Assembly: GCF_044324875.1 (NCBI RefSeq)
Contig: NZ_CP172187.1
Strand: one strand, 5' to 3'
DNA: 64,000 bases
From: Escherichia coli
GTDB lineage: Bacteria; Pseudomonadota; Gammaproteobacteria; Enterobacterales; Enterobacteriaceae
Shown here: in pieces, positions 1 to 8,526 of the stretch
Numbering within the stretch: the first letter of the stretch is position 1
Layout of the letters: each line of letters opens with the position of its first letter
Position numbers and translations under genes: made by a program
Notes under the pieces: generated by a model
Seen by the model: the letters and a program-made list of their open reading frames with translations, nothing else
Told to the model about the DNA's origin: nothing
The model's database searches: none

Positions 1-549
1 TCCAGCACCGTGCATTTTTCCGGTAATAATCACGGCACCATCCCCGATTGCCTCGCGAATATCTCTCGCTGCCAGCCCCAGAGCGCAATTGCTGACCCCG
101 TTATTAGGATTACCTGTTAGCACCAGAATTTTTGCGCCCATATTAACTAGCTTACGGGCATTGTTAGCCGTTGCTGCCCGCCCTGATTTCATTTTCCAGA
201 TATCGTCATGAGCAACAGCAAATTCAGGGTCTACGGCCTCCAGGTTCACACCAATGATACGGCCTGTCAGGCGTTGCAGTTCATGCAACGTTTGTTCTGG
301 TGCAATACCTGCGGGTAATCCCTGAATATACGGATTTTCACTGTCAAACATATTAACCAGTAAAATATCTGCGCCCTGTGATGCAGCAAGTTCGGCATTC
401 GTGACATTGTTCAGTAATGGCTGGGTAATCGCGATGGATTCGCTAACCATCACACGGCCTTCACTGGCACGAATAGCGTACAGAAGCCTGGTTTTATCCA
501 TCGATACAAAATCGGAAGCACAGCAGTCCAGCAGCCGTTTATTGGTCAT
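1..549 (-). CDS. hypothetical protein, partial (3' end beyond window edge); start ATG overlaps the stop of the upstream PTS gene
   Basis: Open minus-strand frame from ATG (complement of 547-549; MTNKRLLDCC...) running off the window; ATGA start/stop overlap with the PTS gene; family not recognised. Confidence 0.5.
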   Translation of the reverse strand, partial: MTNKRLLDCCASDFVSMDKTRLLYAIRASEGRVMVSESIAITQPLLNNVTNAELAASQGADILLVNMFDSENPYIQGLPAGIAPEQTLHELQRLTGRIIGVNLEAVDPEFAVAHDDIWKMKSGRAATANNARKLVNMGAKILVLTGNPNNGVSNCALGLAARDIREAIGDGAVIITGKMHGAG

Positions 550-1943
550 TGAGCGCCTCCTTGCTGATTAACCAGTTCACTGATTTCACCCGCGATAATT
601 TCTGCCCGGGTTCCTACAATGACCTGTAGCCCGGTATCTCCGCGTTTTACAACGCCCATGGCTCCGAGTTTCCTGAGTTCTGGCTCTTGAATCATGTCCA
701 TGTTTGCGACCTCCAGGCGCAGACGGGTAATACAGGCATCAATACGCATAATGTTTTCTTTCCCACCCAAAGCGGCAAGATACGCCGTTGCTAAATCGGA
801 GGAACCGGCAATAGCTGAAATGGTTTCCTCATTATCTTCTCTTCCTGGCGTAGCGAGATTAAAGCGACTAATAAAAAAGCGGAACAGGAAGTAATAAATC
901 AGTGCCCATAAGCCCCCAATAGGTAGCATTAATAACGGATGTGAGGCCAGTCCGAATGACAGTACATAATCAATTAACCCAGCCGAGAACGTAAATCCAA
1001 GTTTAATCCCAAGAATTTGACACACAGCCATAGAAACGCCAGTCAGTACCGCGTGGATACCGTAGAGCACAGGCGACAAAAACAAGAAGGTGTATTCCAC
1101 GGGTTCCGTAATCCCCGTCAGGAATGTCGTCAGCGCGAGTGACAGGAATAACCCGGCGACAGCGGGGCGTTTATCTTTCGGGGCTGCGTGATACATCGCG
1201 AGGCATGCAGCAGGCAGAGCAAACATAAATACCGGGAAATATCCCGCCATAAATGCCCCGGCAGAGGGATCACCGGCAAAGAATCGGTGGATATCACCGG
1301 TCACCACGGTACCATCCGCCGCCGTAAAGGAACCGAAAACAAACCAGACCAGCGAGTTAACAATATGGTGCAAACCCACGACGCGAAAAAGAACGTTCAG
1401 TATACCGTACACAAAGGGGCCAACCGGGCCAGACGCTACCAGCCAGTTACCAATTGCATTCACGCCATGCTGTACCGGTGTCCATGCCCAGCCAAGAATA
1501 ACACCCAGCAGCAGGCAACTTAACCCAGTGGCTATTGGGACAAAACGTTTTCCACCGAAAAAAGCCAGATATTCCGGTAACTTGATATTATGATAGCGAT
1601 TATACAGCACGCCCGCCAACAACCCAGTCAGAATGCCAGACAGGACCCCCATATTAAGTTCAGGATTGATAGCCTGCATCACAGAAGTCAGTACCAGGTA
1701 ACCAATCGTACCTGCCAGGCTGGCGGCACAGTGATTGTCCTTTGCAACCCCCCCACTGATACCTATGGCAAACAGTAGTGGTAAGTTTTCAAACAGTGTT
1801 TGCCCTGCTTTCATTACAAACACAATATTGAAAACATCGGGCTGCCCAAGACGTAGCAGCAACCCGGCGACGGGTAATACAGCAATAGGTAGCATCAGTG
1901 CCTTGCCCAGGCGCTGCATGATGACGAAAAAATTCCCCTGCAT
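546..1943 (-). CDS. PTS system glucose-family EIICB component (sugar unknown)
   Basis: 465 aa ORF; N-terminal multi-TM EIIC resembling PtsG/NagE; C-terminal EIIB with DACITRLR cysteine motif. Confidence 0.85.
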   Translation of the reverse strand: MQGNFFVIMQRLGKALMLPIAVLPVAGLLLRLGQPDVFNIVFVMKAGQTLFENLPLLFAIGISGGVAKDNHCAASLAGTIGYLVLTSVMQAINPELNMGVLSGILTGLLAGVLYNRYHNIKLPEYLAFFGGKRFVPIATGLSCLLLGVILGWAWTPVQHGVNAIGNWLVASGPVGPFVYGILNVLFRVVGLHHIVNSLVWFVFGSFTAADGTVVTGDIHRFFAGDPSAGAFMAGYFPVFMFALPAACLAMYHAAPKDKRPAVAGLFLSLALTTFLTGITEPVEYTFLFLSPVLYGIHAVLTGVSMAVCQILGIKLGFTFSAGLIDYVLSFGLASHPLLMLPIGGLWALIYYFLFRFFISRFNLATPGREDNEETISAIAGSSDLATAYLAALGGKENIMRIDACITRLRLEVANMDMIQEPELRKLGAMGVVKRGDTGLQVIVGTRAEIIAGEISELVNQQGGAQ

Positions 1944-2176
1944 AAATTCACCTCAGTAGTCGTTGTTCATTTTGCGCATGAGACAGTAAACCATCTATGT
2001 ACCATTTGTAGACCATAATGTTTTATGGCTAAAAAGACCTACTGATAGATAGCTGTTTTGTGATCTAACGAGCTTTATTTTTCTTCTGTGAGTGATTTCC
2101 AGGATGACAATGGACGCTCACTGGTTAAGAATTGGTATACAGAGATTGAACCAGATATAACCTGCTAAGAGGAACG

Positions 2177-2926
2177 ATGAAAAAAACTCCGCAACCCGAA
2201 TTTCATCTTGATGAATCCAGCGCGATGCCGCTGTATATGCAACTGGTTAATGCCATTAAGTTAGCCGTAGCGGAAGGTCGACTGCATCCTGGTGACGTTT
2301 TGCCGTCAGAACGGACACTGGTAGAGACGTTGAACATTGCGCGAGGCACAGCCCGTAAAGCATTGCAGCAACTGCTGGAAGAGGGCGTTCTCGTGCGTAA
2401 TCAGGGTTCTGGTACATTCGTTGCTCCACATGTACTTCAATCTCTGCCGTTATTGGAAAGTTTCAGTGAAATGGCCGTTGCCAGTGGTGGAGAAGCACAA
2501 AGCGAACTGGTCGGGTATCAGCGTCGGGCATCTGCGCCGGAAGAGCGTCGTGCCCTGCAACTGACAGATGGTAAAGATGAGGTTGTGGAGCTAACCCGAC
2601 TGCGGAAGATTAACGGTATTGCCGTTTCCCTTCAGACAGCGATTTTACCTGCGGCTCTGCTGGATAAAATCAGTGAACTGGATGAGTCGTTGTACCTGCA
2701 TCTGGAGAAGAAAGGCGCTCCAGTGCTGCGGGCGAGTCAGAGCTTCCGCGCAGTGCCAGTGGACAATAAACTGGCACACTATCTGAACATCGGGGAGCAT
2801 GAACCACTCCTGTTGGTAACCCGCACAGGCTTCACTCACGAAGATAAGCCGGTGGAATACACCCGGACATGGTGCCTGAATGATTACTATGATTTTACGA
2901 TTGAGCTACATCGAAAAGAATCATAA
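2177..2926 (+). CDS. GntR/HutC-family transcriptional regulator (HTH plus UTRA-like effector domain)
   Basis: 249 aa; N-terminal GntR-type HTH (SERTLVETLNIARGTARKALQQL); divergent from the PTS operon. Confidence 0.8.
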   Translation: MKKTPQPEFHLDESSAMPLYMQLVNAIKLAVAEGRLHPGDVLPSERTLVETLNIARGTARKALQQLLEEGVLVRNQGSGTFVAPHVLQSLPLLESFSEMAVASGGEAQSELVGYQRRASAPEERRALQLTDGKDEVVELTRLRKINGIAVSLQTAILPAALLDKISELDESLYLHLEKKGAPVLRASQSFRAVPVDNKLAHYLNIGEHEPLLLVTRTGFTHEDKPVEYTRTWCLNDYYDFTIELHRKES

Positions 2927-3013: not shown

Positions 3014-3376
<363 letters not shown>

Positions 3377-3406
3377 TCAACATAGGTCATCCTAAAATAC
3401 ATTAAA

Positions 3407-3487
3407 GATAACAAGATAACAAGATAACAAGATAACAAGATAACAAGATAACAAGGTGTTATCTTGTTATCTCAAGGTGTTATCTTT
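3407..3487. repeat. iteron array: six direct copies of GATAACAA followed by three inverted copies (TGTTATC)
   Basis: Read directly at 3407-3454 (direct) and 3455-3487 (inverted); immediately downstream of the parG-like gene. Confidence 0.85.
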
Positions 3488-3782
3488 GTTTTACTTCTGC
3501 TATCAATCGTGATACCTCTGTTTTTGATAGTGTTTTAAGTGCTTCTACCGCCGCCCTGACAACATCAGAACGATTCACTCTGCCTTTACCTGAAACCATC
3601 TCAGCCGTTATAAGGGCATCAATGTCTTTTAGGTTTTCTTCAAAAAAAGAAATACTCACTGGTTTTGCTTTGCTTACAACCGATGATTTATCTGATGACT
3701 TTTTGGTATTATCAAGGCCAGCCGTGCCACCGTTAATAAATGCTGCCTCGTCACGAGGTGAAGTGTTTGCTCTATTTCTCAC
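3480..3782 (-). CDS. ParG-like ribbon-helix-helix centromere-binding partition protein
   Basis: 100 aa with flexible basic N-tail and RHH-like C-terminus; 4-bp overlap with the upstream ParA-family gene, typical of type Ib par operons. Confidence 0.6.
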   Translation of the reverse strand: MRNRANTSPRDEAAFINGGTAGLDNTKKSSDKSSVVSKAKPVSISFFEENLKDIDALITAEMVSGKGRVNRSDVVRAAVEALKTLSKTEVSRLIAEVKQR

Positions 3783-4405
3783 AGAATAACCTCTTTCACT
3801 AACGCTTCGATTTCTTGCTGGGCTTTATCATTTTGCGTTTCAAAAATTGTCATTGATTCGGCCCAAGCATCTCGATGTGCTTTACGATCACATACCCGGG
3901 AGTTTGCCAGATGCATTTCAGGGTAATCCTTAAGTACTTCAGCTGCCTCATTGGCTTCATTAACAAACATATTTGTGGGCGTCATGTTTAAAACGAGATA
4001 TCCCCGAACATCCTCATTAAAATCTTTTGCTGCTGTAAAAACGGAGCATGTATGAGGCACAACATCCAGGTCCATCTGAGATGGGCGCAAAGGAGAAATG
4101 AATACATCTGCGGCCATCAATCCACTACGCATTTCTGCGCTATCACGGCCAGCACAGTCTGCAATAACAAAATCATAGGATTTTTCGTGTTCCTTTAACA
4201 TGGCTTTGATGTTACCTGTCGCGCCTGTAACCGGAATATGAGGGAGATCTTCAGGGCGATTGTTGTACCAGGTTAATACTGATTTCTGGTCATCTGCGTC
4301 GACAATAATCACTCTATTGCCTAGTGACATCAGATACGCAGCTATAGATACCGCCAGTGTACTTTTACCTACCCCACCCTTTTGACTACCTAATACTATT
4401 ATCAT
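3779..4405 (-). CDS. parA: ParA/ParF-family partition ATPase (small, type Ib)
   Basis: 208 aa; deviant Walker A KGGVGKST at N-terminus; GAGG RBS upstream of ATG. Confidence 0.85.
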   Translation of the reverse strand: MIIVLGSQKGGVGKSTLAVSIAAYLMSLGNRVIIVDADDQKSVLTWYNNRPEDLPHIPVTGATGNIKAMLKEHEKSYDFVIADCAGRDSAEMRSGLMAADVFISPLRPSQMDLDVVPHTCSVFTAAKDFNEDVRGYLVLNMTPTNMFVNEANEAAEVLKDYPEMHLANSRVCDRKAHRDAWAESMTIFETQNDKAQQEIEALVKEVIL

Positions 4406-6593: not shown

Positions 6594-6862
6594 TATTCTA
6601 ATAACTGAATCCACACACAGTCAAATGTCATTATTGTGACTAAAAAACGCTCAATTCTCTGAGGGTGTGGCTGTATGCCTGCTGTGGACTGCTGTGTCCA
6701 GCTTATCCACAGCATTTTGCGCACGGTTCTGTGAATAAAATACCTGGTTACCCAGGCCGTGCCGGCACGTTAACCGGGCTGCATCCAATGCAAGTGTGTC
6801 GCTGTCGCCGGCATCCTCACCAGGTCACTCAGCAGTCAGGGAGAAAAATGGCGGATGAAGTA

Positions 6863-7221
6863 TGACGGAGACGGTCGGGCAAGTGCCCGTTTCTTTTCCG
6901 ACAAAGGATGTCGCCGTGCTCCTCTTTTTACTGCGCCGGCTGACGCGGCGCGGCATAAACGCTGCCTGTGGTCAGTGTCCCGCGTCCGGCGGGCACGGGA
7001 CGGGCGCTTTTACCGCTCCCGGCTGGCGTCGGTGACAGTGTACGCCAGCCCGTCGCCCTTTTCTGATGAACGCCCTTCAAGCCGCTTTCGCGGCATAGCC
7101 TTGCCGTCAAAAAGACGACGGCTGCGGTATTCCACGGTCGGCCTGACCCGTTACCGGACGCGGTGAACAGCCCACAGGCAGCGGGGAACGGGCACCACAG
7201 GGGGGCCCTCCCGGTGCTCCT
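6863..7221 (+). repeat. leading-region repeat family A, copy 1 (~360 bp, GC-rich, contains long imperfect inverted repeat arms 6954-6989 / 7154-7184)
   Basis: Near-identical to 8168-8526; ends at the RBS of the downstream gene. Confidence 0.85.
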
Positions 7222-7236
7222 GTGAGGAGAATTCCC

Positions 7237-8163
7237 ATGCCAAACTGGTGCTCAAATCGTATGTATTTTTCTGGTGAACCAGCACAGATCGCTGAGATTA
7301 AACGACTGGCCAGCGGTGCAGTCACACCGCTTTATCGCCGCGCCACAGATGAAGGTATTCAGCTGTTTCTGGCCGGTAGTGCCGGACTTCTGCAGACCAC
7401 TGAAGATGTGCGGTTTGAACCATGCCCCGGACTGACGGCTGCCGGACGTGGTGTTGTATCGCCGGAGAATATCGCGTTCACCCGCTGGCTGACACACCTG
7501 CAGAACGGTGTGCTACTGGATGAAAAAAACTGCCTGATGCTGCATGAACTCTGGCTGCAGAGTGGTACTGGCCAGCGTCGCTGGGAAGGATTACCGGATG
7601 AGGTCAGGGAAAGCATCACCGTGCATTTCACCGCCAAAAGAGGTAACTGGTGTGGCTTCTGGAGTAACGAGGATGTATCGGTGTGGTGGAACCGTCTGTG
7701 TGACAATGTACTGCCGGAAAAAACCATGCCGTTTGACCTGCTGACGGTTCTGCCCACCCGCCTGGATGTTGAAGTGAATGGCTTTAACGGTGGTGTTCTG
7801 AACGGTGTTCCTTCTGCGTATCACTGGTATACGGAACAGTATGGCGTGAAGTGGCCTGTGGGGTATGAGGTGAATATCAGCAGTCAGGGAGACAACTTCA
7901 TTCAGGTTGATTTCGACACGCCGTGGTGTCAGCCGGAAAGCGACGTTATTGCAGAATTAAGCCGCCGTTTCAGTTGCACACTGGAGCACTGGTATGCCGA
8001 GCAGGGCTGCAATTTCTGTGGCTGGCAGCGATATGAGCGTGGAGAGCTTGTTGATGTCCTGTGGGGGGAATTGGAATGGTCTTCCCCGACAGATGACGAT
8101 GAGCTGCCGGAAGTCACCGGACCTGCGTGGATTGTCGACAAGGTGGCGCATTACGGTGGATGA
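7237..8163 (+). CDS. hypothetical Cys-rich leading-region protein (family not assigned)
   Basis: 308 aa from ATG preceded by GAGGAG RBS (MPNWCSNRMYF...); multiple Cys/Trp-rich motifs incl. CNFCGW. Confidence 0.7.
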   Translation: MPNWCSNRMYFSGEPAQIAEIKRLASGAVTPLYRRATDEGIQLFLAGSAGLLQTTEDVRFEPCPGLTAAGRGVVSPENIAFTRWLTHLQNGVLLDEKNCLMLHELWLQSGTGQRRWEGLPDEVRESITVHFTAKRGNWCGFWSNEDVSVWWNRLCDNVLPEKTMPFDLLTVLPTRLDVEVNGFNGGVLNGVPSAYHWYTEQYGVKWPVGYEVNISSQGDNFIQVDFDTPWCQPESDVIAELSRRFSCTLEHWYAEQGCNFCGWQRYERGELVDVLWGELEWSSPTDDDELPEVTGPAWIVDKVAHYGG

Positions 8164-8167
8164 ATTC

Positions 8168-8526
8168 TGACGGAGACGGGCGGGCAACCGCCCGTTTCTT
8201 TTCCGACAAAGGATGTCGCCGTGCTCCTCTTTTTACTGCGCCGGCTGACGCGGCGCGGCATAAACGCTGCCTGTGGTCAGTGTCCCGCGTCCGGCGGGCA
8301 CGGGACGGGCGCTTTTACCGCTCCCGGCTGGCACCGGTGACAGTGTACGCCAGCCCGTCGCCCTTTTCTGATGAACGCCCTTCAAGCCGCTTTCGCGGCA
8401 TAGCCTTGCCGTCAAAAAGACGACGGCTGCGGTATTCCACGGTCGGCCTGACCCGTTACCGGACGCGGTGAACAGCCCACAGGCAGCGGGGAACGGGCAC
8501 CACAGGGGTGCCCTCCCGGTGCCTTC
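8168..8526 (+). repeat. leading-region repeat family A, copy 2
   Basis: Near-identical to 6863-7221; ends at RBS of the methyltransferase gene. Confidence 0.85.

Follow-up and report, generated by a model that had tools for sequence, protein, structure and literature searches.

A three-gene phosphotransferase module with a NagE-clade EIICB, a DUF7916 protein and a NagR-like regulator on Escherichia coli plasmids

The closest described relatives of the system reported here are nagE of Escherichia coli and nagP of Bacillus subtilis with its regulator NagR (YvoA), which serve the use of N-acetylglucosamine (GlcNAc), and the murQP-murR system of E. coli. In the mur system, a dedicated EIIBC works with the host EIIA-Glc, one enzyme leads to an intermediate of the nag pathway, and a divergently encoded repressor senses the sugar phosphate. 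Here, we describe a phosphotransferase system (PTS) module at the start of a 64,000-nucleotide stretch of DNA from E. coli (assembly GCF_044324875.1, contig NZ_CP172187.1; hereafter the window), which consists of the genes for an EIICB permease, a protein of the DUF7916 family and a GntR/HutC-type regulator. We put at about 0.6 the probability that these genes form a self-contained mobile module for the inducible uptake and 6-phosphorylation of a GlcNAc-like sugar, which would then undergo a single conversion by DUF7916. Systems of this kind are familiar, but the enzyme, the subfamily of the permease and the type of operator found here have not been described.

The module resembles the nagE and nagP-NagR systems in that its permease belongs to the NagE clade, passes the TIGR01998 model and is 53% identical to NagE, and it has the EIICB make-up of B. 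subtilis NagP, which also lacks EIIA. Its regulator is nearest to NagR and DasR and keeps the residues that bind the phosphate of the effector. It differs from these systems in substitutions of the permease (R203V, M257F/Y) and of the regulator (E145Q, Y228C), in predicted operators that are 11-bp direct repeats and not palindromic dre sites, and in having DUF7916 instead of nagA/nagB. The likeness to murQP-murR is one of plan, as we propose for the module an EIIBC that borrows the host EIIA-Glc, one converting enzyme and a divergent repressor that senses the sugar phosphate. The parts themselves differ: MurQ is an etherase of the sugar isomerase (SIS) fold and MurR is of the RpiR type, whereas the module has a triosephosphate isomerase (TIM)-barrel DUF7916 and a HutC-type regulator, and MurP matches the module permease with only 33 bits and over the EIIB domain only. 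NanE (PF04131) offers another likeness, being a TIM barrel that acts on N-acetylhexosamine 6-phosphate, and such an activity would fit a one-step feed into NagA/NagB. Finally, the equally uncharacterised DUF7916 clusters of Gram-positive bacteria are likewise plasmid-borne PTS sugar operons with their own regulator, and their further enzymes belong to amino-sugar or host-glycan types (AgaS-family SIS, LacD, and the glycoside hydrolases GH16 and GH35). Their DUF7916 proteins are 40-44% identical to that of the module, they encode extra catabolic enzymes, and neither has a NagE-type EIIC; that of the Clostridium perfringens cluster is annotated in the lactose/cellobiose-type PTS, unlike the NagE-clade EIICB of the module.

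The EIICB gene (546..1943, minus strand) encodes 465 residues with the PF02378 (4.7e-65) and PF00367 (1.1e-11) domains, which bears out the glucose-family assignment made in an earlier note on this DNA. That note was also right in coupling the gene to its downstream neighbour through an ATGA stop/start overlap: the plus strand reads tcat at 546-549, so that on the minus strand the TGA of the EIICB gene (548-546) overlaps the ATG of the next gene (549-547). The downstream gene, which had been left without an assignment, can now be placed in DUF7916 (PF25509), a family without characterised function whose fold is predicted with high confidence to be a TIM barrel. Its frame is open from 549 to base 1 of the window (1..549, minus strand), which holds the 5' part with the first 183 of 309 codons; about 380 nt more lie beyond the window start, and the complete gene of 309 codons is found in the identical plasmid NZ_CP080262.1 (L001:14620-15549). 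The regulator gene (2177..2926, plus strand) is divergent from the EIICB gene, with 233 nt between them, and encodes a NagR/DasR-like protein of 249 residues. As had been claimed, it is of GntR/HutC type, with an N-terminal GntR winged helix-turn-helix domain (PF00392, 6.5e-17) and a C-terminal UTRA effector domain (PF07702, 1.6e-28), the combination that places it in the HutC subfamily. The extent first given for the module, 546-2926, is correct for the EIICB and regulator genes and leaves out the third gene, which occupies 1-549 and runs past the window start. All three reading frames are intact.

The permease scores 573.6 bits against TIGR01998 (GlcNAc-specific IIBC), a margin of only 20 bits over the cutoff of 553.2, and fails NF007608 (NagE IIABC; 556.8 bits against a cutoff of 1010), its alignment stopping at profile position 468 of 648. 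Both the phospho-cysteine motif of the EIIB domain, DACITRLRL (Cys404), and the sugar-site motif LTGITEPVEY are present, and there is no EIIA domain. An EIICB without EIIA needs an EIIA of the host, and the module permease would therefore be expected to use one. Its closest solved protein is the IICB of E. coli PtsG (5.8e-111); the 53% identity to E. coli NagE refers to the C and B domains of the latter, and the identity to NagE proteins of Burkholderia is ∼60%. These comparisons place it in the NagE clade, where it represents a subfamily of about 24 clusters (at least 67% identity, 453-467 residues) that likewise lack EIIA. In five of five contexts examined, the subfamily permease adjoins DUF7916, often with translational coupling.

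To what extent the sugar site is conserved is suggested by the residues that contact glucose in the cryo-EM structures of PtsG (PMC11393339), which we mapped onto an alignment of nine subfamily members and five NagE sequences. The subfamily retains H211, H212, N215, G295, T297, E298, F337 and S338 of PtsG, and has N202 in common with NagE. Two positions are changed. Position 203 is R in PtsG and in the five NagE sequences and V in all nine subfamily members; position 257 is K in PtsG, M in NagE, and F or Y in all nine. The other nine sugar-contact positions are common with NagE (H212 in four of the five NagE sequences). In PtsG, positions 203 and 257 contact OH-2/OH-3, while H211, H212, N215, T297 and E298 hold OH-3/4/6 (PMC11393339). 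Since the changed positions are those that contact OH-2 and OH-3, the sugar of the module permease is probably GlcNAc-like but different around C2/C3. The name nagE, given by the Prokaryotic Genome Annotation Pipeline (PGAP) and RefSeq, rests on the marginal TIGR01998 score; with sugar-contact residues that differ from those of NagE, the specificity is best left as the earlier note had it, that is, unassigned.

The nearest solved relatives of the regulator are B. subtilis NagR/YvoA (6e-29) and then DasR, and we aligned it to NagR, for which the ligand contacts were taken from PMC4333415. By this alignment, the residues that bind phosphate in NagR are kept: T90 corresponds to S97 of the regulator, R133 to R141, R135 to R143, and S165-I166-Y167 to S171-L172-Y173. 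Several sugar contacts are changed, as E145, Y228 and A224 of NagR correspond to Q153, C233 and T229, and S226, which contacts the acetyl group, to T231. The pattern is common to 13 orthologous regulators (52-93% identity), including those from loci without a permease, with single exceptions at Y228 and S226; E145Q and A224T are found in all 13 and Y228C in 12. Because the phosphate binders are kept and several sugar contacts changed across the 13 orthologues, the effector is probably a sugar phosphate other than GlcNAc-6-P.

The region between the divergent genes carries two predicted operators. O1 (1987..2015, minus strand) consists of three 11-bp-phased TGGTnnA repeats directed toward the EIICB gene, whose ATG lies 44-72 nt downstream, and O2 (2122..2139, plus strand) of two such repeats directed toward the regulator gene. 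The triple pattern matches once in 64 kb, at O1 itself, against 0.01 expected, and the double pattern three times, always in this intergenic region, against 0.10 expected. The repeats of both sites are conserved across the 13 intergenic regions that we compared. A consensus scan found a promoter-like site of the regulator gene (ATGACA, 17 nt, AAGAAT; 2104..2132, plus strand), which overlaps O2 and whose ATGACA box is conserved across loci; the position of O2 suggests autoregulation. There is also a conserved TTTTGTGATCT box (2056..2066, plus strand); by eye, GATCACAAAA or a close variant of it is seen in most of the 13 intergenic regions. The box could be half of a CRP-like site; compared by eye with the CRP consensus, only its left half fits. 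No dre-type palindrome was found in the intergenic regions compared, the conserved motif being the direct 11-bp-phased TGGTnnA repeat. The predicted half-site TGGT.TA resembles a dre half.

Of the three proteins, DUF7916 is the least familiar. The part encoded in the window matches PF25509 at 1e-57, and the full 309-residue protein at 1.1e-120 (402.6 bits, profile positions 1-296 of 296). The AlphaFold (AF2) model, built with 64 homologues, is a regular (beta/alpha)8 barrel with a predicted local distance difference test score (pLDDT) of 95.8. A sequence search of the PDB gave no match better than E=0.14, and Foldseek aligned the model to many barrels with a template modelling (TM) score of ∼0.5 and to no close solved structure. 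Conserved polar residues lie at the C-terminal ends of the predicted strands, namely E37, N66, D69, N102, E104, T145, N147, K178, H180, T216, S246, Q247, E248, H270, H271 and D274. In the model, the glycine-rich loops after strands 7 and 8 (IGTSQEG and IGDTG) look like the usual phosphate-binding site.

NanE is the sole recurrent remote signal. Among 64 DUF7916 members, 18 match PF04131, the best at 4.7e-6; a search with the profile of the family picks up C. perfringens NanE at 3.4e-4; and hhalign aligns DUF7916 to E. coli NanE with 78% probability over 72 columns, pairing strands 6-8 with strands 4-6 of NanE. For the plasmid protein itself there is no PF04131 match at E<=1. As the match is local, register-shifted and absent for the plasmid protein, we do not file DUF7916 as a NanE ortholog. 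A circular permutation that would equate SEGR of DUF7916 with AEGR of NanE was dropped, as the model has SEGR before strand 1. The database names "HAD-like hydrolase" and "PEP phosphonomutase" are unsupported. A haloacid dehalogenase (HAD) hydrolase does not agree with the (beta/alpha)8 barrel of the model, and PF12710 is matched by one of 64 members at 0.023; for phosphoenolpyruvate (PEP) mutase or phosphonomutase, PF13714 is matched by two of 64 at 0.035, and isocitrate and methylisocitrate lyases give only generic TIM-barrel matches to the model (TM about 0.5). We found no paper on DUF7916, nor on a "PEP phosphonomutase" with PTS and GntR. The family is widespread: when the representatives of 50%-identity clusters in the full library were searched, 592 proteins matched at E<=0.001, and it ranges from Enterobacterales to Lachnospiraceae and enterococcal megaplasmids.

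The pair of EIICB and DUF7916 genes recurs in independent contexts. On the chromosomes of Kosakonia oryzendophytica and Erwinia sp. BNK-24-b, and at the rbsD-kup site of an enterobacterial chromosome, the regulator is likewise divergent from EIICB-DUF7916. The rbsD-kup locus, the one chromosomal locus compared at this level, is ∼75% identical in DNA to the plasmid module and has no flanks in common with it. The closest non-plasmid relative, and best donor match, is a contig from run ERR023560 that is flanked by insertion sequences (IS) and is 93% identical in DNA; the shared unit measures 3389 bp, with one end 70 nt beyond the stop codon of DUF7916 and the other 12 nt beyond that of the regulator gene. 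The ATGA overlap is found again in locus L007, and a gap of 3-14 nt separates the two genes in the chromosomal loci L103, L101 and L004. A further context is a second plasmid-like contig (L102:3039-7380), near parB, psiB and psiA, where permease and DUF7916 stand in another arrangement, with an AraC regulator, a protein with the SIS_2 sugar-isomerase domain and DUF7916 on one side, EIICB on the other, and no GntR regulator. This arrangement suggests that another plasmid lineage captured the gene pair independently.

DUF7916 itself is found in other neighbourhoods. On Gram-positive plasmids, homologues at the 40-44% identity given above lie inside PTS operons: Enterococcus faecium megaplasmids have GntR, an AgaS-family SIS protein, LacD, DUF7916 and EIIC, and the 14.7-kb C. 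perfringens plasmid pLLY_N11_2, from chicken, has ROK | DUF7916, IIB, GH16, IIA, IIC and GH35. Together with the SIS_2 partner on the psiB-psiA contig, these clusters tie DUF7916 to phosphosugar and amino-sugar catabolism, although they do not fix the reaction. In five enterobacterial loci, DUF7916 adjoins a protein of ∼620 residues that resembles MurG, with a glycosyltransferase B (GT-B) fold, which is another link to GlcNAc chemistry. These loci are from Erwinia (in the same operon as DUF7916), Cedecea neteri, Enterobacter sp. Ag1, Kosakonia and a metagenomic contig, and in the last of these a gene for a SpaK-like type III chaperone is adjacent. The ∼620-residue family has no Pfam, NCBIfam or PDB sequence match.

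A more general view came from one genome per species scanned with a 15-sequence DUF7916 alignment, which yielded the 80 closest relatives at 52-89% identity. The same regulator is divergently placed in nine Enterobacterales among them. Over 83 DUF7916 loci, no conserved neighbour was found besides the GntR regulator, the next largest cluster occurring in 11 loci, and tblastn of the PTS, SIS and LacD genes of the Gram-positive clusters against these loci found nothing. With the regulator in nine of the 80 and EIICB beside DUF7916 in none, we conclude that DUF7916 is the core of the system, that the regulator joins it in Enterobacterales, and that the permease is a later and rarer addition.

The window has a 100% identical counterpart in p135-2 (NZ_CP080262.1, IncK2/Z, chicken, China), a plasmid of E. 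coli. The earlier note had suspected that the module is cargo and not chromosomal, and this is what the survey of plasmids and genomes shows. The whole module is present in only five PLSDB plasmids, whose copies, from China and Pakistan, are 99.8-100% identical, and in four of 5426 complete E. coli genomes, where every copy is plasmid-borne and none chromosomal; all carriers with a stated source are E. coli from chicken with IncK2/Z plasmids. The unit of 3.39 kb lies between the ProQ/FinO-PerC-AraC genes and the partition (par) locus of these plasmids. The carrier with the least rearrangement is pPK8275-82kb, which has, in this order, repA, toxin-antitoxin, ProQ/FinO, PerC and AraC-like genes, then DUF7916, EIICB, GntR and a truncated recombinase, then the small par gene, ParA and a Y-family polymerase. 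In the IncK2 reference plasmid pTMSA1088, by contrast, ProQ/FinO leads directly to the par locus. In about 25 more plasmids of IncK2/Z type, carried by E. coli, Shigella, E. fergusonii and Klebsiella, all that is left of the module is the final 193 nt of DUF7916 together with its 3' flank (L099:5001-5413 and ∼25 others). Position arithmetic puts the far end of this loss near window 3250; the remnant plasmids share one deletion that removed the module up to about this point. Homology to ∼1200 plasmid backbones begins only at window ∼3251. Given the module-free reference, the remnant plasmids and the start of backbone homology, the module is accessory; it is cargo in the variable region between replicon and partition locus, and has since been lost from most relatives. 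A search around the 3.39-kb unit found no inverted or direct repeats flanking it. A match of the products to a characterised chromosomal operon in its native context would, by the earlier note, count against its reading; chromosomal counterparts exist, as described above, and none of them is characterised.

How the three genes may work together can be sketched as follows. When no inducer is present, the NagR-like HutC repressor would bind the TGGTnnA arrays, which overlap both divergent promoters, and repress the EIICB-DUF7916 operon together with its own gene. The NagE-clade EIICB would import and 6-phosphorylate an N-acetylhexosamine-like sugar differing from GlcNAc around C2/C3, with phosphate passed from the host EI/HPr through the host EIIA-Glc (Crr) or the EIIA domain of NagE. 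The resulting sugar phosphate would release the repressor. DUF7916, as a (beta/alpha)8 barrel of the phosphate-binding type, would convert the sugar phosphate in one step to a product that the host can use, the likeliest reaction being an epimerisation or isomerisation that yields GlcNAc-6-P for NagA/NagB, and the product would enter host amino-sugar metabolism. That the reaction is specifically that of an epimerase is a doubtful assignment. We also offer, tentatively and with the odds against it, a broader proposal: DUF7916 would be an unrecognised converter of amino-sugar phosphates which, with the NagE-derived permease and the NagR-derived sensor, provides a new one-step entry route for a GlcNAc-like sugar (a C2/C3 variant such as N-acetylmannosamine, ManNAc), mobile on plasmids of poultry E. 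coli and, in some enterobacteria, coupled to the MurG-like GT-B protein, maybe a secreted effector. Plasmid-borne modules for nutrient uptake can favour the host in a particular gut niche. Moreover, once the sugar is known, enzyme, permease subfamily and regulator subfamily would all receive a function together, and the module gives a clean genetic handle on DUF7916, as it is 3.4 kb, self-regulated, made of three genes and found in E. coli.

The simplest competing account is that the permease is a second GlcNAc permease, a nagE paralogue, and that DUF7916 is a co-transcribed passenger with an unrelated role. It agrees with the TIGR01998 match, the identities to the E. coli and Burkholderia NagE proteins, the RefSeq label and the fact that the nearest characterised relatives of the regulator control the use of GlcNAc. 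We nevertheless find it unlikely. The margin over the TIGR01998 cutoff is small, R203V and M257F/Y are found in 9/9 subfamily members while the NagE proteins of E. coli and Burkholderia retain R and M, the sugar contacts of the regulator are not those of NagR, and E. coli already has NagE. In addition, the permease adjoins DUF7916 in every one of the five contexts examined, often with translational coupling. Still less likely is a non-catabolic DUF7916 that acts alongside the MurG-like GT-B protein in a system for GlcNAc-centred glycosylation or for interaction with a host, of which the plasmid would carry only the sugar-supply half. The association of DUF7916 with this protein in five enterobacterial loci could point to such a role, but the GT-B gene is absent from the window, from the plasmids and from most DUF7916 loci, and the Gram-positive homologues lie in plainly catabolic PTS clusters. 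This association is one of several observations that weigh against an uptake module built around DUF7916. Another is that EIICB stands beside DUF7916 in 0/80 of the closest-relative species genomes and neighbours are not conserved, from which it follows that DUF7916 does not depend on the EIICB permease. Furthermore, the dre sites of NagR/DasR are palindromes, whereas the operators predicted here are direct repeats, and, because ∼25 related plasmids have deleted most of the module, selection for it in E. coli may be weak.

The same deletion, which left these plasmids with the last 193 nt of DUF7916, and the truncated recombinase that adjoins the module could also be read as signs of a decaying remnant without current function, in which the permease is a pseudogene and the module is on its way to deletion. 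The annotation of related plasmids seems to agree: PGAP flags the EIICB of pTB-nb3 (NZ_CP033634.1) as an incomplete pseudogene, "missing C-terminus", and PLSDB lists no EIICB protein for NZ_CP080262.1 and NZ_CP080167.1. The pseudogene call looks like an artefact of comparison with the 648-residue NagE. The chromosomal orthologues have the same EIICB architecture at 453-467 residues, so the flag reflects the longer NagE and not decay, and what is "missing" by comparison with E. coli NagE is no more than the EIIA domain. With intact frames, plasmid copies from two countries that are almost identical, and promoter and operator motifs retained, decay is the least probable of the accounts considered here, and a functional uptake module for a GlcNAc-like sugar remains the reading that we prefer.

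On its right side, the module abuts a recombinase scar and a plasmid partition locus, as the earlier note had reported. The serine recombinase gene (3014..3292, minus strand) is called truncated because only the tail of its catalytic Resolvase domain and HTH_7 are left. Over window 3027-3256 it matches recombinase genes on plasmids of Erwinia and Serratia with 79% identity, and the boundary with the backbone falls inside the recombinase region, at ∼3251-3256. The partition locus (3480..4405, minus strand) comprises ParA (3779-4405; NF041546, 1e-45) and a 100-residue partner (3480-3782); as both par genes are also found in the module-free pTMSA1088, it is part of the IncK2/Z backbone. Upstream of the par operon, at 3404..3470, the sequence shows 8-bp AAGATAAC units repeated in direct and then in inverted orientation (TGTTATCTTGTTATCT), an array that is presumably the plasmid partition site. 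Repeat families of AAGATAAC are also seen in the corresponding region of L100, and the array belongs to the backbone and not to the module.

On the left side, genes for a PerC-family activator and an AraC-family protein lie directly next to the module (L001:13276-14303; also in L099 and L100), and they persist in the ∼25 plasmids that have lost it. The pair recalls the perA/perC regulators of the EAF plasmid of enteropathogenic E. coli (EPEC). Also outside the window, in the gap that separates the AraC-like gene from the DUF7916 stop, there is a 122-bp stretch with a stable hairpin ATCCGGGAAGGCTAAACTCTCCCGGAT (L001:14487-14608), which occurs with 100% identity in plasmids of Klebsiella, the virulence plasmids pLVPK and pK2044 among them, and is intergenic in pLVPK. 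About 520 plasmid records, mostly of Klebsiella, match only a short part of the query, which among the matches listed is the hairpin stretch only. The stretch may be a terminator or a recombination hotspot, or else a small repeat element.

The IncK2/Z group has already been tied to poultry (PMC12987596). A 2026 paper on the adaptation of IncK2 plasmids to chicken does not mention the module, and a literature search on IncK2 plasmids with the phosphotransferase system found nothing. In the leading region of the plasmid, two near-identical segments of ∼300 bp (window 6855-7166 and 8127-8471) flank a DUF1281 gene. The plus-strand open reading frames of both have DGDGRA(S/T)ARFFSDKGCRRAPLF...RYRTR in common, and the segments are probably repeated non-coding elements rather than genes.

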